Below are positions 12,750 to 34,034 of a DNA stretch of 37,314 bases, one piece after another. Position 1 is the first letter of the stretch; every line of letters begins with the position of its first letter. This stretch comes from Planctomycetia bacterium (lineage in GTDB: Bacteria > Planctomycetota > Planctomycetia > Pirellulales > PALSA-1355). The notes under the pieces were generated by a model. It was not told the DNA's origin and made no database searches. It saw only the letters and a program-made list of their open reading frames with translations. Location: the NCBI GenBank assembly GCA_043749935.1, contig JAYVCO010000327.1, positions 1-37,314 of the forward strand. Reading direction: 5' to 3'. The position numbers were made by a program, and so were the translations under genes.

Positions 12750-12760
12750 GCCCGCCTAGC

Positions 12761-12966
12761 GTGTGTTGGTGGTCGGAGGCTTCTCTCTTGAAGTGTCCGA
12801 CAAACAGGGAACTCCGGTGCAATTCCGGGACGGCCCCGCCGCTGTAACCGAGTGTCAAGGGAAGCTGATTCGTGCCATTGTCTGCCCGGGTCGCCGCAAG
12901 GTGAACCGACGCCGACGAGAAGGCCAGCCCAGCCCGAACTCGGGAGTCAGAAGACCTACCAACACG
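12761..12966 (+). promoter_or_regulatory. Cobalamin (adenosylcobalamin/B12) riboswitch, Rfam RF00174-like
   Basis: The core cagggaactccggtgcaattccgggacggccccgccgctgtaacc matches the conserved AGGGAA..GGTG.AA.TCC...CCCGCC.CTGTAA core. A gccattg element is present. The B12 box agtcagaagacctacc lies at 12945-12960. The closing P1 helix pairs gtgttggt (12763-12770) with accaacac (12958-12965). Confidence 0.85.
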
Positions 12967-13163
12967 TTGATCGGTGGCTCGCCGCGAGGGACGGGGGCCG
13001 CAGAGTGTTTGTTGGCCTTAGGACGCCGCTAATCGTTCGCTCTTGCTCTCGTTGACCACTCGAACCCGGGTCATGCGCGCTGGCTCTTTGCGCCCGCTGC
13101 ACGCACCCCCTCGGTTTCTGTCTCGACGTTGGCACGCGCGAACCGTGTGCGCTTGAACGACCC

Positions 13164-27693: not shown

Positions 27694-29889
27694 TCAGGCT
27701 TGCCACATCATCAACTCGAAATCGGGGGAGGGAACGACCGTCTCCAGAGCTCCTTCGTGCGGAATGCGTTCCAATACATGTTCATTGCGGATCAGTTCCA
27801 CGTAAAAGTGAATCTTGGCATCGGTCGCCGCCGCCAGGCTCCGCCAGGCAACCGCGACTTCCAAGATCACGTCGGCCGCCGCTTCGACCCCCGCGGCGCT
27901 GACAGGCACGTCATTTTGATACATCTGCACGATCGGCTCTCTCACGCTGGGCTCGGTGACCAGCAGTTCGAAACCGGCTGGCTCGCTGAATACGATGCGT
28001 AGGGTATCGACGTCTTCCAAATGTTGCCGCATGCTGCCGTGCGAGTCGAGCCTCAATAGCAGTCGCTCGGCATCGAAACCGAAAAATAACTTTTCAATGC
28101 GTGGCGGTTCGGCCATCGACATCGTGCCTCGCCCTGTCGAGGCCGTGTAGAGACCCGCATTGAGCCACTCGAAATACGTTTCGCGGCCGTTGATTTTCAC
28201 GTCCAACAGAGCCGTCGGCTGCGTAAAGAGTTGTGCCTGACGTTGATGCTCGCCGATCGGCCTGAGCAGCGCTTGAGGCGGCTCTTCTCCGAGGAGCGTG
28301 TAGACGTTGTGCAAGTGCTTGCGGAACAACTGGTCGAAAAGTTCGTCCTGGGCGCTGGAGTGGCTGTCGTCGAACCACCAAAACCAATCGCTTCCCTCGG
28401 CGATGTAGATTTCGTCCCAAGCCGCGGCGAGTTGTTCCGCGGGAAGTTCGTCTTCGCTCGCGTGTTTGACCAGCATAGTTCGCGTTTCGGAGAGCAGATC
28501 CCAGGCCCGGTTGCAGGCTGGATGGCCGATCCAGATGCCAAAATTGTGGCTGATCCAACTGCCGGCGAACAACTGGCCCAGGCGTTGACTGGTCGGATGC
28601 TTCTTCAAATAGTCGCGGACGCGCACCGTTTTGATTTTCTTGTGGCGAGCCAGGCGCCGATAAAGGCCGCGCAAGAAATCGAGCCCGCCGTTGGGATAAT
28701 ACTCCCAGCAGTTTTCGCCATCGAGGATGATGCTGACCAGTTTCGGTTGATCGCCGGCCTGCTCGCCGCTCGCACGCTGAATGTTTTCGAGCTTGCCTAC
28801 CAATTCGTCGACCGCGTGTTCGGCCTGGTAGCCCTGATAGTGGAAACCGATCTGATCGCTCAGCGCGTGATCGCGAAAGATCATTTGCAACTCTCGGCCA
28901 TTCTCTTCCACGCGCCAAGCACGATAGAGGGATTCCGGATTTTCGACCTGGCCCCGGGGGTCGCGCGAAATCCAGTCGTGGGTCGAGTGGGCCAAGATCT
29001 CTTCATCCGTCGCAATCCACTCGATCCCCGCCTCCGCAATCAGGGGAATGATCGACTGGCTCACTGAGCCCTCGGAAGGCCACATTCCCACCGGCGGACT
29101 GCCGAAAATTTCCGTATGATATTTCACCGCGCGGCGAATTTGCGCCGCGGCGTCTTCCGGATAGCCTTCGAGATGTCGAGGCAAATCGACGTGCGGCATC
29201 GCTTGTCGTGCCAGCTTCTTGTCGACCAGCAGCGGCAAGATCGGATGATAAAAGGGCGTGGTCGTCAGTTCCACTTGCCCGCGGTCGGCCAATTTCCGGT
29301 GCAATGGAATAACCTGGGCCAATATTTCCATTTGTTTGTCGAGCAGCCACTGCTTTTCGTCTTCCGACCAATGTTGCCCCTTGTTGCGGAATTCCGCCAG
29401 GTCGTCGTGCAACTCGAAAGCCAGCGGATGAAACCACGTCAGATTGCTCCAACATTGCAGGTCGAGCATGTCCTGCACCGAAAATCGGCGCGCCGCCCGC
29501 GCGGCGGTGTCGCTGCTCAGCCCGCGCTGCTGATAGAGCTCGTAGTAGCGCGGGTAGGGCCGGATCATGTGCTGCGGGTTGGCCATGAAAAAGTTGTCGA
29601 GCAGATACAGCCGCTCGGCCTCATCGAGGCTGTCCGCCGCCAGCCGCGACACGCGCAAGTGTTCGTCTTGCCGATGGTCGTCGGTGTAGGCCAGAAGTTG
29701 CTTGAGCAGGCTGGGCACGAGGTTGATCGTGGCCCGCATCTCAGGCACTTCGCTCAAGTGCATCGCCATGCCCCAATAGTCCTTGGTGCCGTGCAGCCGC
29801 ACCCAAGGCATGGCGTTGTGACCCGTCAGATCGTCGGGGTAGTAGGGCTGATGCTGGTGCCAGACGAAAGCGACGGATAAATCGTGCAT
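27694..29889 (-). CDS. GH57-family glycoside hydrolase (glycogen or alpha-glucan processing)
   Basis: Motifs seen: [10 protein letters not shown], the nucleophile context [10 protein letters not shown] and the acid/base context [11 protein letters not shown]. 731 aa. Confidence 0.85.
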
Positions 29890-30024
29890 GGCAATCCCAC
29901 GCCGTGTGGGCCCCGTGGAGGGTTCATGACCCGCGACCGCCCGCCGATGGTCCCTTTCGATACTTGTTGGCGAACGGCATTTGCCGCGAGCCGCTGACTT
30001 TGATCGAGTTAGTTTACTCTAGCT

Positions 30025-30173
30025 GCCCGTTGAAAAATGCCATCGTGGCATTTTTCAACCTCGCCAAGTGTGGAGCTAAGCTCCAAACGGCTCGCAAAAT
30101 AACGACTTGCGTCATTATTTTGTTATCGCATCCATGCGATATAGCAGCCCGTCGAATAATTCAACGGGCTGCT
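30025..30173. repeat. 149-nt five-hairpin repeat element, copy A
   Basis: It aligns without gaps to the reverse complement of 32701-32849, with 21 mismatches in 149 by hand count. It has a 14-bp perfect stem (gttgaaaaatgcca/tggcatttttcaac) and a terminal 10-bp stem (agcagcccgt/acgggctgct). It overlaps the glgA stop codon by 2 nt. Confidence 0.85.
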
Positions 30174-31668
30174 AGGCGTGGTTGGAAACGGAACCGCGGC
30201 GCACCTGATTGGCCGTGGCGCGATACAAATCAATGTACTTCCGAGCGCTCGTCGCCCAAGACCAGTCCTGCAGCATGCCGTTGTGCATCAGCCGCTTCCA
30301 AACGTCGGCTTGCGCGAAAGTGTTGCAAGCTCGCTGCAACGATTCGGCCAGCGCCAGCCCACTATAGTCGCCGAACGTAAACCCGTTGGCCGTGCCAGAT
30401 GCGAGCGTCTTTTCCGATAAATCGGTAATCGTGTCGACCAATCCGCCGGTAGCTCGCACCACGGGCACGGTGCCATATTTCAGGCTATAGAGTTGATTCA
30501 AGCCGCACGGCTCATATCGGCTGGGCATCACGAAAATGTCGGCGCCGGCTTCGATGCGGTGCGCTAGCCGGTTGGAAAACTCGAGCCGCGTGGCCACTTT
30601 TTGTGGAAACCGCTCGGCCAGCATCATGAACTGTTCCTGGTAAGCCGCTTCGCCGGTGCCCAAGATGACCCACTGCGCATCGTGCAAATGGACCCACTCG
30701 CGCACGGTGGCGGAAAGCAAATCGATTCCTTTTTGATCCGCCAGCCGACCGATGAACGCGATCAGAGGCACCTTTGGCAACACGGGCAAACCGAGCTCGG
30801 CTTGCAGCGCGGCTTTGCAAACCGGCTTGCCGGTTTCAACCGTTTCCGCGCCGTAGTTGGCCGGCAGATGCGGATCGGTGGCCGGGTCCCACTCGCGATA
30901 GTCGACGCCGTTGACAATGCCCGAGAGCACTTCGCGCCTGCTTTGCAACACGCCCTCGAGACCACAGCCCAAGGGCGCGGCCTGTATTTCTTCCGCGTAG
31001 CGAGGACTCACCGTGTTGAGCCGATCGGAAAAAATCAGCCCCGTCTTGAGCAGGTTCAGATTTCCAAAGAACTCCATCTGCTGCCAATTGAAATACTTCC
31101 AGTCGAGCCCGGTCAACAGCATGTCCCAATGCCAGAAGACGCCCTGATAGGCCATGTTGTGGATCGTGAAGAGCGTGCCGATGTTTTCATAGCCGGGCAC
31201 GCCGCGATGTTCGATCTTCAACAGCGCCGGCAGCAGGCCCGTCTGCCAATCGTTGGCGTGCAAGATGTCGACTTCCAATTCGAGCAGGCGAATGCCTTCC
31301 AGGATTGCGCGCGAGAAGAAGACGAATCGCTCGCAGTTGTCCTTATAATCCTGGCCGTTCTCTTGATACAGCTCTGGGCGATCGAAGTAACGGTCCTGGT
31401 GAACCAGATAGACCGGCACCGTGCTATTGGGCAGATGGCTTTTCGAAAAGCTCCCCTTTACGGTCTTGCTGCCAATCTGCACGTCGAAGTAAATTCCGGT
31501 GGGCTCGATCGGCACGCCAGCCGAGTGGACCTGTCGGTAAGCCGGCAGAAACACCATCGGCTCGTGGCCAAGTTTTTCTAGCTCGACTGGCAGCGCCCCG
31601 CAAACATCGGCCAGACCGCCGGTTTTTGCGAACGGGACCGCCTCGCTCGTGGCTATCAGAATCTTCAC
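30172..31668 (-). CDS. glgA: Glycogen synthase (GT5)
   Basis: Motifs seen: VKILIATSEAVPFAKTGGLADV and PSRYEPCGLNQLYSLKYGTVPVVRATGGLVDT. I prefer GTG 31668, which gives M-KILIATSE after a purine-rich AGGGGAAAAG. The track's ATG at 31728 lies inside a tandem AT-rich repeat and remains an alternative. Confidence 0.88.
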   Translation of the reverse strand: MKILIATSEAVPFAKTGGLADVCGALPVELEKLGHEPMVFLPAYRQVHSAGVPIEPTGIYFDVQIGSKTVKGSFSKSHLPNSTVPVYLVHQDRYFDRPELYQENGQDYKDNCERFVFFSRAILEGIRLLELEVDILHANDWQTGLLPALLKIEHRGVPGYENIGTLFTIHNMAYQGVFWHWDMLLTGLDWKYFNWQQMEFFGNLNLLKTGLIFSDRLNTVSPRYAEEIQAAPLGCGLEGVLQSRREVLSGIVNGVDYREWDPATDPHLPANYGAETVETGKPVCKAALQAELGLPVLPKVPLIAFIGRLADQKGIDLLSATVREWVHLHDAQWVILGTGEAAYQEQFMMLAERFPQKVATRLEFSNRLAHRIEAGADIFVMPSRYEPCGLNQLYSLKYGTVPVVRATGGLVDTITDLSEKTLASGTANGFTFGDYSGLALAESLQRACNTFAQADVWKRLMHNGMLQDWSWATSARKYIDLYRATANQVRRGSVSNHA

Positions 31669-31967
31669 GCGTGCTTTTCCCCTGATCCGAGTTGAATCGC
31701 CGGCGATTGGCGCCACCGGCCTATTCATCTCTATTCATCATAACTACTACGTGTCGCCCTGCCGTCGCATTTGTGCGCTCTCCAGGAACAAGCGGCCGCC
31801 GGACTGAAACATCAGGCTATCAGATACGGACGCAAAACGACAAGGCGAAGCAACTTACGCTTCGAGTAAGGTAAACTCGACGCGAATTACCCTGTTTGCC
31901 TTAGTGATAGCATCGGAACTTGAAGGGAGGTGGGATCAATCTTTCCGATGTCGAAGTCGTTATCTCA

Positions 31968-32553
31968 TCACTGCCGCGGCGCTTGGTACGGATTGTCGCT
32001 ACTCTGAACTGGCGGCAAGCTAACCTTCGCCGGGCCAAAACTGGTGCCTTGGGGGAGAGGTTGGCCGGTGAACACCGGGTTATCGGCATACTTGCGCCAG
32101 ATCACCTTTGACTTCGCCCAGCCGTCGCCGATGCGAAACCCTTTGAGCAATCCAAAGCCAACGATGAGCGGCATGAATGGAATTAGCACCGGCAGGTTCC
32201 TGGCCGCCGCGCTTCCCAGGCCGATCGGCTGGTACGTTTCGCGATTGACGGCTTGCACTCCCATCATGGCCTTGCCGGGCGAGCAACCCGCGAACGAGTC
32301 TTTGACCAGCAGCAACGAAATAAAGGATCCATACGACGTCAAAGTCAGTACGACTTCGGAGCTTGGCGGCAACGGCGGCCACGCACGCGATTTGCGCGAT
32401 TTGAATCAGGAAACTGTCGATGAAGAAAGCGAACTGCCGGCGATTGGCAAACCCGTTGCGGCATTTCTTGCACACCTTGTAGCCGTAGAGCAGTTTCTTG
32501 TGGTTCATCCCCTTGGTTCGGCCACACAGTGGGCAACTTTCGCCGGTACTCAT
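31968..32553 (-). pseudogene. RDD-family membrane protein with an N-terminal zinc ribbon, split by a +1 frameshift
   Basis: Frame A (32553 downwards) reads CPLCG...VCKKCRNGFANRRQFAFFIDSFLIQIAQIACVAAVAA. Frame B, through 31968, reads VVLTLTSYGSFISLLLVKDSFAGCSPGKAMMGVQAV...RNLPVLIP...FRIGDGWAKSKVI, a typical RDD C-terminal half. The two frames swap within gccgccgttgccgccaagctcc, around 32355-32376. Confidence 0.6.
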
Positions 32554-32700
32554 GATCTGGCTCCTGGTTTTTGGGATGAGCGCGTAAGGTCAAATCCCCT
32601 TAATGTAGGGTGTGCAAGCGCGCAATCAAGTGATTTGCGAGTCGCAACAAAAACAGGTCAGAAAACTCGTGCGGCGAGTCCGAGTTTTAGCGGCTCTTTT

Positions 32701-32849
32701 AGCAGGCTGTTGATTTAGTCAACAGCCTGCGATGTCGCAGGAATGCGATGACAAAATAGCGACGCCAGTCGTTATTTTGCGAGCCGTGCGGAGCTTCGCT
32801 CCGCACTTGGCGAGGTTGAGAAATGCCACGATGGCATTTCTCAACGGGC
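32701..32849. repeat. 149-nt five-hairpin repeat element, copy B (inverted relative to copy A)
   Basis: Its reverse complement matches 30025-30173 at about 86% with no gaps. Compensatory changes preserve the stems. The element supplies the last three codons and the TGA stop of the aminotransferase gene. Confidence 0.85.
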
Positions 32850-34034
32850 TAGGAATGCTTCGATCCGATCGAAGCCTGCCTTGAGCGTGTCCAGGCTGGT
32901 CGCAAACGAGACCCGTGCATATCCCTCGGCGCCGAATGCGGAACCCATCACCGTGGCGACATTCTGTTGCTCCAGGAGCGTCAGGCACCACTGGGTCGAA
33001 TTGTCGACGCGGGTGCCGCCGTACATGCGGCCGAGGTGGGCCTTGATATTGATGAACGCGTAGAACGCGCCGGCCATGTCGGGACATGAAAGCCCCGCGA
33101 TGCTGGCGATGCGCGAGCGCACGAACTCGCGCCGCTTGGCGAACTCGGCCAGCATTTCGCTCACGCACTCTTGCGGGCCTTCGAGCGCGGCCAAGGCCGC
33201 ATATTGACTGACGCTCGAGGGATTCGACGTCTCTTGGCTCTGCAGGTCGGCCATGGCCGTGGCCACGTTGGCCGGCGAAAGCGTCCAACCAATCCGCCAG
33301 CCGGTCATCGCGTAAGCCTTGCTCGCGCCGTTGACCAGGATCGTGCGATCCTGCATGCCCGGCCGCACGGTGGCGAAGCTGGCGAAGTGATGGTTTCCAT
33401 AAATCAGCCGCTCATAGATTTCATCCGAGATCACGATCAGGTTCCGCTCGATCGCGACGTCGGCCAGATGTCCCAACTCTTCGGGCGAGTACATCGTGCC
33501 GGTCGGGTTCGATGGGGAACAGACCAACAGCATCGTGGTCTTGCCGGTGATGGCCGCGCGCAGTTGGGTCGGCGTCAGTTTGAAATTGTTCGATTCTTCG
33601 GTCGGCACGATCACCGGCACGGCGCCAGTGAGCTTGACCAATTCGGCATAGCTGACCCAGTAGGGCGCGGGAATGATCACCTCATCGCCCGGGTTGCACA
33701 GCGCGGTGAAAACATTGTGCAGCGAGTGTTTCGCGCCATTCGACACCACGACCTGTCCGGCCGCGTACTTCAAACCGTGGGTCGCCTGATACTGCTTGGC
33801 GATCGCGGTGCGCAGCTCGGGAATGCCGCTGGCCGCGGTATAGTGCGTGTGGCCGGCTTTCATGGCCGCCACGGCCGCCTGGCAGATGTGCTCGGGCGTG
33901 GTGAAGTCGGGCTCGCCGACGCTAAAGTCGTAGACCGCTTTGCCGGCCGCTTTCAATTCCTTAGCCTTGGCCGCCATGGCCAAAGTGGCCGAAGGCTCCA
34001 GGGCTCTGACGATGCGAGAAATAGACAGCGGCAT
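32841..34034 (-). CDS. Class I pyridoxal-phosphate-dependent (aspartate-type) aminotransferase
   Basis: The PLP-lysine motif is NGASKAYAMTGWRIGW. VCSPSNPTG and the N-terminal FSVGEPDFTTP are also present. The start was moved to ATG 34034 (MPLSISRIVRALEPS), which follows a GGGAG Shine-Dalgarno-like site. Confidence 0.88.
   Translation of the reverse strand: MPLSISRIVRALEPSATLAMAAKAKELKAAGKAVYDFSVGEPDFTTPEHICQAAVAAMKAGHTHYTAASGIPELRTAIAKQYQATHGLKYAAGQVVVSNGAKHSLHNVFTALCNPGDEVIIPAPYWVSYAELVKLTGAVPVIVPTEESNNFKLTPTQLRAAITGKTTMLLVCSPSNPTGTMYSPEELGHLADVAIERNLIVISDEIYERLIYGNHHFASFATVRPGMQDRTILVNGASKAYAMTGWRIGWTLSPANVATAMADLQSQETSNPSSVSQYAALAALEGPQECVSEMLAEFAKRREFVRSRIASIAGLSCPDMAGAFYAFINIKAHLGRMYGGTRVDNSTQWCLTLLEQQNVATVMGSAFGAEGYARVSFATSLDTLKAGFDRIEAFLAR

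Follow-up and report, generated by a model that had tools for sequence, protein, structure and literature searches.

Two inverted hairpin repeats beside glgA in a Pirellulales bacterium stem from separate insertions of a short non-coding MITE

Introduction

The window analyzed here, a stretch of 37,314 nucleotides from a Planctomycetia bacterium of the order Pirellulales (contig JAYVCO010000327.1, assembly GCA_043749935.1), contains two inverted copies of a repeat made of consecutive hairpins, one at the 3' end of glgA and the other at the 3' end of an aminotransferase gene. The locus raises the question of what kind of element this is, how it came to lie at two stop codons, and for whose benefit its hairpins are kept. 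An earlier note, made from the sequence alone, favored a REP/BIME/Correia-like or MITE-like DNA element, or a bidirectional terminator/insulator module, over a single oriented sRNA.

Results

Two copies at the glgA locus

A repeat search of the window returned one outstanding inverted pair, 30025-30174 and 32700-32849, of 150 nt and 86% complementarity. Direct comparison aligned both copies without gaps and with 21 mismatches in 150 nt (positions 10, 30, 47, 53, 61, 62, 84, 90, 91, 100, 108, 110, 116, 119, 124, 126, 129, 132, 136, 142 and 144), in agreement with the ungapped inverted pair and the mismatch count of the earlier note; the four compensatory pairs that it listed (10/30, 47/61, 124/144 and 126/142) are all among these positions. 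The repeats are where it had placed them (30025-30173 and 32701-32849), but their exact ends are not, since the true element is shifted by two bases (Table 1). Two assemblies made independently from other samples (L001 and L002) also contain both copies and differ from the window by one SNP over 3.2 kb, so the locus is not an assembly artefact, and the assembly duplication that had been raised as a possible objection is excluded. This SNP, at position 30086 in hairpin 2, is A in the window and C in L001 and L002, and one pair is broken in the window version only.

Table 1. Coordinates of the two element copies, their parts and the neighboring genes in the window
Feature	Position	Strand	Remarks
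MITE copy A, 149-bp core	30023..30171	+	hairpin 1 to hairpin 5 on the plus strand; core equals modal family length
Target duplication (TSD) of copy A, left (CTAG)	30019..30022		sequence; TSD analysis
Target duplication (TSD) of copy A, right (CTAG)	30172..30175		minus strand: glgA stop TAG (30174-30172) lies inside
Left terminal inverted repeat, copy A	30023..30034	+	CTGCCCGTTGAA; family consensus CAGCCTGTTGAA
Right terminal inverted repeat, copy A	30160..30171	+	TTCAACGGGCTG
Hairpin 1, copy A	30029..30059		14 bp; inner part of the left terminus forms the 5' arm
Hairpin 2, copy A	30063..30091		folding; covariation
Hairpin 3, copy A	30094..30123		A-tract / stem / T-tract palindrome
Hairpin 4, copy A	30124..30141		folding; covariation
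Hairpin 5, copy A	30144..30172		right terminus pairs with an internal terminus copy
MITE copy B, 146-bp core	32703..32848	-	orientation opposite to copy A; lacks 3 nt at the hairpin-1 terminus
Copy B flanking 4-mer, hairpin-5 end	32699..32702	-	CTAA on the minus strand
Copy B flanking 4-mer, hairpin-1 end	32849..32852	-	CTAG on the minus strand; CTA is an aminotransferase Leu codon
glgA	30172..31668	-	498 aa in the gene calls of public assemblies; stop inside the copy A duplication, protein unaltered
Class I/II aminotransferase	32841..34034	-	397 aa; last residues ..L-A-R-stop from the copy B duplication and terminus
RDD-family gene region between copies	31968..32553	-	two overlapping ORFs; bystander outside the element

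Neighboring genes and empty sites

The stops of glgA (30172-30174) and the aminotransferase (32841-32843) are placed as the earlier note had them. The gene between the copies had been called a frameshifted RDD gene; the two overlapping ORFs are present, and a frameshift is plausible but not proven, with an RDD Pfam match in one ORF only. Relatives whose GlgA is 79-80% identical keep the gene order aminotransferase-glgA-GH57 and lack the element at the syntenic loci, thus providing the empty sites that had been suggested as a check; the RDD gene is missing at this position in them. In-silico excision of copy B restores an aminotransferase ending in ...IEAFLK, and the orthologues end in FLKSK and FLKRD. 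With copy A removed, the glgA stop is in the same position as in the orthologues.

Element family, termini and target duplication

The two repeats, the only copies documented in the source genome, are members of a family. An exact 20-mer scan matched at least 110 DNA stretches in about 22 MAGs of planctomycetes, chiefly Pirellulales, and nhmmer gave 137 matches, including about 100 full-length copies, so that the copy count proposed in the earlier note came out in favor of a dispersed repeat. The modal core length is 149 bp (55/92 copies), which leaves no room for a transposase and no coding capacity. The family termini are CAGCC(T/C)GTTGAA...TTCAAC(A/G)GGCTG. The terminal inverted repeats span 12-19 bp, CAGCCYGTTGAA[AAATGCC], and CAGCCYGTTGAA was found at about 160 of the roughly 200 ends examined, on both sides; the ends also share A at position 3, T at position 4 and C at position 6.

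Copies are flanked by a 4-bp target duplication, NTAN, of the Py-T-A-Pu type (YTAR), mostly CTAA or CTAG. Left and right sides agree at the four flanking positions in 73-76% of copies, compared with 17-33% just outside, and the 4-mers of both sides are fully identical in 38/92 copies (among them CTAA in 15, CTAG in 14, CTAC in 3 and TTAA in 2). Position 4 of the flanking 4-mer is concordant in 45/55 copies, including C/C and T/T within one genome, and CTAA, which is not a palindrome, is repeated in direct orientation on the two sides. A TA duplication like that of IS630/Tc1 was rejected, because the bases beside TA co-vary between left and right and also differ between IS copies whose transposase is identical (see below).

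No longer version of the element was found when the fetched loci were searched for extra termini and the partial nhmmer matches were inspected; these checks turned up truncated copies, contig-end copies and mini-elements only, and the ORFs beside two truncated copies encode no transposases. Solo hairpins of 27-41 nt are also present. A search of the planctomycete MITE and RAYT literature found no description of the 149-bp element. Its size, terminal inverted repeats, copy-specific duplication, dispersed copies and empty orthologous sites are those of a MITE, and the two repeats in the window are independent insertions of this small non-coding element, which is common in Pirellulales bacteria. 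Copy number, inverted repeats with duplications, empty sites and the covariation described below all support the earlier preference for a MITE- or Correia-like DNA element over an oriented sRNA.

Association with stop codons

In 33 of 56 clean copies (59%), the duplication holds the exact end of a long, inward-running ORF, and in six more such an ORF ends at the TGA at +11. As background, 21% of 1756 YTAR sites in general lie at stop codons of long ORFs. The element is found beside genes in both orientations (13 left versus 20-26 right). The YTAR target together with selection against intragenic insertions explains the stop-codon position.

Hairpins and covariation

On either strand, the two copies form five hairpins, with minimum free energies of -71 to -89 kcal/mol, compared with -35 to -48 for shuffled sequences (z = -10.4 to -11.3; 0/200 shuffles as good). 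The chain of five stem-loops seen in the earlier note is therefore real, and consists of five near-perfect hairpins at z of about -11. Covariation was assessed by counting pairs directly on the copy A structure, projected across the family; RNAalifold on a MAFFT alignment had given a poor consensus because of gaps in the alignment, and was replaced. Across copies, 89% of the cells in the projected stems were paired, and 181 cells were doubly changed, compared with 54 +/- 7 for shuffled and 24-46 for slid controls, so that the covariation exceeds both kinds of control. Private substitutions within genomes affect 6.0% of stem positions versus 7.5% of unpaired sites, and most of them break pairs.

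The claim of selection on structure is thus upheld for the propagating lineage, in which stems covary, but not within genomes, in which stems are hit nearly as often as unpaired sites. Because lineages covary but genomes decay almost neutrally, the hairpins most likely serve the spread of the element, with no apparent host function at each locus. The compensatory changes could also come from template-switch correction of quasi-palindromes instead of selection.

A candidate mobilizing insertion sequence

Metagenomes and one Gemmataceae MAG contain a 1.44-kb IS with the termini of the MITE and CTAG/CTAA-type flanks. At locus L136 it reads CTAG|CAGCCTGTTGAAAAATGCC...1442 bp...TTCAACGGGCTG|CTAG, with an ORF of 465 aa; eleven further copies of 1440-1462 bp, one of them in the Gemmataceae MAG, have the same termini and YTAR-type flanks. 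The IS encodes a single DDE transposase of 441-465 aa with at least 8000 relatives. The L136 transposase contains the domains DUF772, DDE_Tnp_1 and DDE_Tnp_1_6, with Pfam DDE_Tnp_1 and DUF772 above their cut-offs. Its nearest NCBIfam model is IS1182 (2e-57), followed by IS5, with 195 bits against a cut-off of 270 for IS1182 and 113 against 140 for IS5 (IS5_4); since both scores are below the cut-offs, the family assignment is approximate. E. coli IS5 InsH had no match better than E = 0.9 in all loci (tblastn).

MITE and IS share the terminal 12-19 nt only, and not the IS subterminal sequence. The partner transposase had no match in the MITE-bearing loci and the window (tblastn, about 830 kb), and nhmmer found no MITE on the IS-bearing contigs; as no shared contig was found, co-occurrence is established at the level of the Planctomycetota/Gemmataceae labels only. 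In several IS copies the left and right 4-mers differ at position 1 or 4, which we attribute to repeat-induced chimeric metagenome contigs, but which could also mean a shorter duplication. A second MITE family, of 120 nt, has the same termini and 4-5-bp duplications of arbitrary sequence, so YTAR is no fixed property of all enzymes that use these ends. The 1.44-kb IS, absent from the MITE-bearing contigs searched, is the likely mobilizer of the MITE.

Discussion

Very probably, the two repeats are independent MITE insertions, mobilized in trans at YTAR sites, where those at stop codons survive selection; their hairpins most likely serve the element. The transposase of the IS, or a close relative in the same cell, would bind the MITE termini, make a 4-bp staggered cut at YTAR and mobilize the MITE in trans. 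The duplicated 4-mer carries TAA or TAG on one or both strands, so a gene whose stop codon takes the insertion keeps both its stop and its protein sequence, as happened at glgA, and such insertions survive selection. Insertion a few codons upstream replaces the tail of the protein, and translation then stops, no more than 12 nt on, at the TGA of GTTGA, the case seen in the aminotransferase. Hairpins 1 and 5 are built partly from internal copies of the terminus, and the role of the hairpins for the element may be, for example, in transposase recruitment, synapsis or host tolerance.

Palindromic repeats moved by other enzymes have to be considered, since the element is a chain of palindromes and solo hairpins of 27-41 nt occur. 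Rhodopirellula baltica belongs to the order Pirellulales. It has been reported to carry several REP families and RAYT genes, and GTAG REPs, which are palindromic and occur in a planctomycete, often supply the TAG stop of flanking ORFs (PMC3733652). In such a REP/REPIN/BIME-type repeat, moved by a RAYT (an HUH tyrosine transposase), the tetranucleotide would be a conserved tag. However, copies in a single genome carry different 4-mers (CTAA, CTAG, CTAC, TTAA, TTAT and CAAG), which match in direct orientation on the two sides, as target duplications do and an inverted fixed tag does not, the terminal inverted repeats are common to a DDE-transposase IS with the same flanks, and no RAYT gene was noticed beside any copy in 8-kb windows. 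Because the flanking 4-mers are direct and copy-specific, the REP/BIME alternative of the earlier note fails, and we regard it as very improbable. PATE-like elements have subterminal hairpins and no terminal inverted repeats, and insert without duplication 3' of a fixed tetra- or pentanucleotide; an IS200/IS605-derived palindromic element of this kind was rejected, as inverted repeats and duplications are present where none are expected. A composite transposon that imported glgA and the RDD gene would account for inverted copies enclosing 2.5 kb and for an RDD gene that relatives lack here, but copy A has its own perfect CTAG/CTAG flanks and copy B its own CTAG/CTAA flanks, the aminotransferase-glgA-GH57 order is conserved in relatives without the element, and the copies, at 14% divergence, are no recent pair; this origin is hardly credible. 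The earlier note had described the copies as bracketing glgA. Given separate duplications for each copy and an ancestral glgA synteny, this bracketing has no special meaning and is a coincidence.

A structured RNA or cis module selected by the host at each locus (a bidirectional terminator/insulator, an mRNA 3'-end stabilizer or an sRNA), with mobility secondary, would fit the very stable hairpins on both strands, the significant covariation and the position directly after stop codons in 59% of copies; by eye, the A-tract / stem / T-tract sequence of hairpins 1 and 3 also resembles bidirectional terminators. An intrinsic terminator has a G+C-rich stem-loop with a T-run directly after it. The T-runs of hairpins 1 and 3 are part of the stems, and a terminator scan gave 3 sites in 29700-33100 and none in either copy, so the bidirectional terminator idea of the earlier note finds no canonical terminator inside the element. 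The element was below every gathering score in Rfam 15 (best TD-2, 25 bits, E = 0.98), and the sole match above threshold in the window was a cobalamin riboswitch outside it. Also against this module are the presence of both orientations beside genes and a stop-codon position already accounted for by target and counterselection; stem substitutions near the unpaired rate, and mostly pair-breaking, argue against purifying selection locus by locus. Selection of this kind is improbable. Somewhat less so, though still unlikely, is a variant in which hairpins 2-4, which are unrelated to the transposase-binding termini and have been conserved through compensatory changes in over 20 species, are selected cargo, a strand-symmetric RNA/DNA module that may act as a bidirectional terminator, 3'-end stabilizer or insulator brought precisely to stop codons; if so, the MITE would be a self-spreading 3'-UTR cassette tolerated or exploited by Pirellulales.

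The MITE has its closest parallels in the IS5/IS1182 superfamily and its MITE derivatives. The partner IS encodes DUF772 and DDE_Tnp_1 domains and has its best NCBIfam scores with the IS1182 and IS5 models, although these scores do not reach either curated cut-off. The terminus of IS903, a member of the IS5 family, has the same TGTTGAA block at positions 6-12, but IS903 makes 9-bp duplications, unlike the 4-bp duplication of the MITE; E. coli IS5 has termini, GGAAGGTGCGAA, that bear no relation to those shared by the MITE and the IS. The target of IS5 is Py-T-A-Pu with a 4-bp duplication, and the duplications of the MITE match the CTAG, CTAA, TTAG and CAAG listed for it from ISfinder, with CAAG occasional (PMC5493358).

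Correia elements (CREE/NEMIS) of Neisseria are MITEs of about 150 bp with 26-bp terminal inverted repeats and a TA duplication, present in high copy number next to genes and giving hairpin transcripts. The planctomycete element is like them in its length of about 150 bp, terminal inverted repeats, TA-containing duplication, many copies beside genes and strong hairpin potential. It differs in its host and apparently in sequence and termini, as well as in its 4-bp YTAR duplication instead of TA, its interior of five separate hairpins instead of one long hairpin between the inverted repeats, and its identifiable autonomous partner IS. Correia elements are listed among bacterial MITEs in the same work that describes the GTAG REPs (PMC3733652). 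Like the element, REPs and REPINs consist of palindromes, often overlap stop codons and occur in a planctomycete, whereas they have a fixed tag, no target duplication and RAYT tyrosine transposases where the MITE has copy-specific direct duplications and a DDE partner; the R. baltica REPs are set apart here by their description, as their consensus sequences are given only in a figure (PMC3733652). The SPRITE, BOX and RUP repeats of Streptococcus pneumoniae, proposed as terminators or regulators, are also small, non-coding and stably folding in transcripts (PMC10969869), but are unrelated in sequence and host, and no terminator signature was detected in the MITE.

These results explain a conspicuous repeat of uncultured Pirellulales genomes, one that breaks assemblies (several copies are at contig ends), creates spurious ORFs and changes real C-termini, as in the aminotransferase here. 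Its consensus, exact limits and candidate transposase can be used for masking and annotating it. The combination of covariation across lineages with neutral decay within genomes is a caution that compensatory changes in repeats need not mean a host-selected RNA. The element also offers a clean natural case of a YTAR-targeting transposon landing on stop codons in a GC-rich genome, where the gene is left intact because the 4-bp duplication carries the stop codon.

Two inverted copies of a hairpin element

When the entire 37-kb window was searched for repeats, the strongest inverted repeat by far consisted of two gap-free segments of 150 nt with 86% complementarity and 21 mismatches (see the table). 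The pairs that the earlier note had described as compensatory (10/30, 47/61, 124/144 and 126/142) were all among the mismatched positions in a direct comparison. Each strand of each copy folded, as had been claimed, into five near-perfect hairpins, with MFE values of -71 to -89 kcal/mol and z-scores of -10.4 to -11.3; in 200 dinucleotide shuffles no fold was as good as that of either copy. An assembly artefact, which the earlier note had left as a possibility, was excluded, since both copies were found in two independent assemblies of the same organism from other samples (L001 and L002), which align with the window without gaps and differ from it by a single substitution in 3.2 kb. This sole SNP (29800-33000) was at position 30086 in hairpin 2 of copy A, where the C of L001 and L002 gives a perfect 9-bp stem and the A of the window breaks one pair. 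The gene order on the minus strand was aminotransferase, copy B, RDD-domain region, glgA, copy A and GH57 glycoside hydrolase. A cobalamin riboswitch aptamer elsewhere in the window was unrelated to the element.

Coordinates of the elements and associated features
Feature	Location	Strand	Flanking 4-mers	Remarks
Copy A	window 30023-30171	+	CTAG (30019-22)/CTAG (30172-75)	149-bp MITE
Copy B	window 32703-32848	-		MITE, 146-bp core
Inverted repeat arms	window 30025-30174, 32700-32849			
Split RDD region	window 31968-32553	-		
Cobalamin riboswitch aptamer	window 12750-12977	+		RF00174, 80 bits, E = 2e-18
Full-length MITE copy	L031:4175-4325			461-kb contig, Chloroflexia-labelled MAG
Contig-end MITE copy	L111:2-139			Gemmataceae MAG
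MITE copy with insertion	L073:2739-2941			~47 nt in hairpin-3 loop
120-nt MITE	L122:3323-3443, L125:4321-4440, L128:6903-7022, L141:1823-1943, L147:3562-3681			approximate
122-nt variant	L121, L131			
150-nt element	L133			
Single-hairpin mini-element	L113:7742-7776		TTAG/CTAG	
Single-hairpin mini-element	L013:5786-5834		TTAG/CTAG	
Single-hairpin mini-element	L055:150-200		CAAG/CAAG	
CTTGACA(G) inside left IS terminus	L136:1640-1660			example

Copy number, distribution and related elements

The copy count proposed in the earlier note, made by scanning a 20-mer from the element against one genome per species (596 Gb), matched at least 110 DNA stretches in about 22 MAGs. A profile search of these stretches gave 137 matches, about 100 of them full length, with a modal length of 149 bp and the consensus CAGCCTGTTGAAAAATGCCnTCGTGGCATTTTTCAACCTCGCCAAGTGCGGAGCAAAGCTCCGCACGGCTCGCAAAATAACGACTTGCGTCGCnATTTTGnCATCGCATCCnTGCGATGnCGCAGCCnGTTGAATACTTCAACAGGCTG. 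Several copies were at contig ends, as expected of a repeat that breaks assemblies, and one had an insertion in the hairpin-3 loop. Among the matches listed, the carriers were almost all labelled Pirellulales, Planctomycetia or Planctomycetaceae, the outliers being one Gemmataceae and one 'Chloroflexia' MAG, whose copies could reflect horizontal spread, or mis-binning or mislabelling. Xenorhabdus budapestensis (L101) was rejected as a carrier, having the exact 20-mer without the rest of the element; about one such match is expected by chance in 596 Gb.

The 120-nt elements form a second MITE family, with the termini CAGCCTGTTGAAAAATGCC...TTTTTCAACAGGCTG of the 149-bp MITE. Their interior is unrelated to that of the 149-bp MITE and richer in AT, and their duplications are 4-5 bp long and arbitrary in sequence (CGGCC, GAGC, ATGCG, GAAG, TCTT). 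There are also mini-elements that consist of a single hairpin, 27 nt long for the hairpin-5 type and 41 nt for the hairpin-1 type. Separate 4-mers flank each of them, and they are either what extreme deletion has left of the 149-bp element or the units from which it was built.

Termini and target duplication

Inverted repeats 12 nt or longer form the ends of the MITE. The left and right flanks agreed in 73-76% of copies at each of four bases, against a random 17-33% further outward, and the identical 4-mer pairs were CTAA (15), CTAG (14), CTAC (3) and TTAA (2), plus single cases. Within one genome the fourth base was A in some copies and G, C or T in others, each time the same left and right. 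Duplication of TA was ruled out by this co-variation of the outer bases, which also differ among copies of a related insertion sequence (IS, described below) with identical transposases; the duplication is thus a 4-bp NTAN. The REP/BIME alternative of the earlier note does not hold, because CTAA...CTAA is direct and not inverted, and the 4-mers are therefore target duplications rather than a REP-like tag. Their spectrum matches the Py-T-A-Pu (YTAR) targets of IS5, which are CTAG, CTAA, TTAG and rarely CAAG (PMC5493358); CAAG was also found on both sides of one mini-element.

Maintenance and decay of the hairpins

In hairpin 1 the left terminus pairs with an internal inverted copy of terminus positions 6-19, and in hairpin 5 the right terminus pairs with a direct copy of the terminus located internally. 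Hairpins 2-4 bear no relation to the termini. The covariation check supported paired changes: among 99 distinct copies, 89% of the cells were standard pairs, and 22 of 56 pairs had changed on both sides. Doubly changed cells numbered 181, versus 54 +/- 7 in shuffles (0 of 500 were as high) and 24-46 after sliding the partners by 1-3 columns. Pairs alternated in hairpin 1 (U-A/C-G/A-U/G-C), hairpin 2 (G-C/A-U/C-G), hairpin 4 (C-G/G-C and G-C/A-U) and hairpin 5 (U-A/C-G); hairpin 3, its 5' arm fixed by the search pattern, gave little information. In the MAG SMAG_U5421 (L038, L058, L064, L070, L081) the change was concerted, with GTTGAA to GGGGAA and TTCAAC to TTCCCC in four sequence blocks at once, namely both termini and both internal arms.

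Within genomes, differences from the genome's own consensus affected 6.0% of stem versus 7.5% of unpaired positions, and of those in stems 186 broke a pair, 72 left a wobble and 64 were compensated. The selection on structure proposed in the earlier note is therefore upheld for the lineage that gives rise to new copies and not for inserted copies, whose stems decay. This points to a role of the hairpins in propagation or immediate tolerance rather than in a host function at each locus. The compensatory changes could instead be purely mutational, arising by template-switch correction of quasi-palindromes. That hairpins 2-4 are functional cargo delivered to gene ends seems unlikely. No matching Rfam family was found, and a simple terminator scan detected none inside either copy, which speaks against the terminator module that had been suggested; hairpins 1 and 3, as we read the sequence, resemble bidirectional terminators in their A-tract/stem/T-tract symmetry.

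Empty sites and insertion at stop codons

By its GlgA the window belongs to an uncultured Pirellulales bacterium. The nearest relatives by GlgA, only ~80% identical, keep the aminotransferase-glgA-GH57 order with no trace of the element there by BLAST, providing the empty sites that had been sought; their glgA-GH57 spacer is 131 nt versus 283 nt in the window. The insertion of copy A was a harmless case, with the TAG stop of glgA inside the right CTAG, at the position of the TAA stop of the orthologues. At copy B the insertion narrowly missed such a site: the aminotransferase had its last residues replaced and is now terminated by the element's TGA. In silico removal of copy B and one flanking 4-mer changed the end ...IEAFLAR* to ...IEAFLK..., which matches the orthologue ends ...FLKSK* and ...FLKRD*.

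The inverted copies on either side of glgA could be read as a composite transposon or insulated cassette; however, each has its own duplication, they differ by 14%, and the synteny of glgA predates both, which argues against such a unit and against a special meaning of the bracketing pointed out in the earlier note. The frameshift noted in the RDD gene is plausible: the gene occupies two frames that overlap, and the Pfam RDD domain was found only in the downstream ORF. Two other assemblies carry exactly this sequence, which means that any frameshift exists in the population. At this position one relative (L004) has no gene and another (L003) has other small ORFs.

The longest ORF of at least 150 codons reading into the element was examined in 56 copies with clean flanks. 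In 33 of them its stop fell precisely within the duplicated 4-mer, and in six more it lay 11 nt inside the element, at the TGA of GTTGA. In the same 826 kb (62% G+C), YTAR occurs at 2.1/kb, and only 21% of the sites are the stop of such an ORF. The simplest reading would be that the enzyme requires YTAR, of which a substantial share in a GC-rich genome would be TAA or TAG stops, and that selection removes insertions inside genes. An insertion at a stop codon would do no harm, since a gene coming from either side finds its stop in the 4-bp duplication.

A candidate partner insertion sequence

No transposase-like genes were found in the fetched Pirellulales stretches. A metagenome scan with the 19-nt terminus that left out continuations into hairpin 1 returned 30 loci, which included the 120-nt MITE family. 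One locus (L136) had the terminus and its inverted copy 1442 bp apart (CTAG, CAGCCTGTTGAAAAATGCC...TTCAACGGGCTG, CTAG), enclosing a single 465-aa ORF with the Pfam domains DUF772, DDE_Tnp_1 and DDE_Tnp_1_6. The best NCBIfam model was IS1182 (2e-57), followed by an IS5 model, both below curated cut-offs, and at least 8000 relatives were found in the protein collection, typically of 441 aa on contigs of ~1.5 kb. Eleven further IS copies that were fetched (1440-1462 bp) had termini CAG(C/G)C(C/T)GTTGAAAA and YTAR-type 4-mers on both sides; six contexts shared one transposase sequence, and a Gemmataceae MAG carried one of the copies. The MITE terminus variants resemble those of the IS, with GTTGAAATAGGCC in one MITE subfamily and at the right end of the Gemmataceae IS. 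tblastn with the IS transposase gave no match in the window or in the 830 kb of DNA that carries MITEs, and no MITE was found on the IS contigs. The likely transposase of the MITE belongs to the IS1182/IS5 superfamily, under curated thresholds. The ends of IS903 (IS5 family), GGCTTTGTTGAATAAATC, share TGTTGAA at positions 6-12 and 10 of 18 bases, a resemblance to the MITE termini that is suggestive only.

In all IS copies the left terminus is followed on its inner side by CTTGACA(G), which resembles a -35 hexamer and may serve transcription of the transposase gene; this sequence is missing from the MITE. At L154-L157 and L160 the IS copies have other transposase genes as neighbours on one or both sides (DDE_5, DDE_Tnp_1_4, DDE_3, and the same family in a second copy). 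One right flank is joined there to differing left flanks, a pattern that points to islands rich in IS or to contigs made chimeric by repeats.

Classification

The element is small, with terminal inverted repeats, copy-specific duplications, many dispersed copies and empty sites, and is by these defining features a MITE, as the earlier note had proposed. Its target behaviour is the same as that of the IS5 group, and it does not fit the definition of REP or REPIN. It works like Correia and other structured MITEs, is not known to have any sequence in common with them, and has a 4-bp duplication in contrast to TA. No description of a planctomycete MITE or of this 149-bp repeat was found in the literature searched; a 2013 survey of tagged REPs gives only the REPs and RAYTs of R. 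baltica (PMC3733652). The MITE is relevant to work on mobile DNA and to the annotation of planctomycete MAGs.
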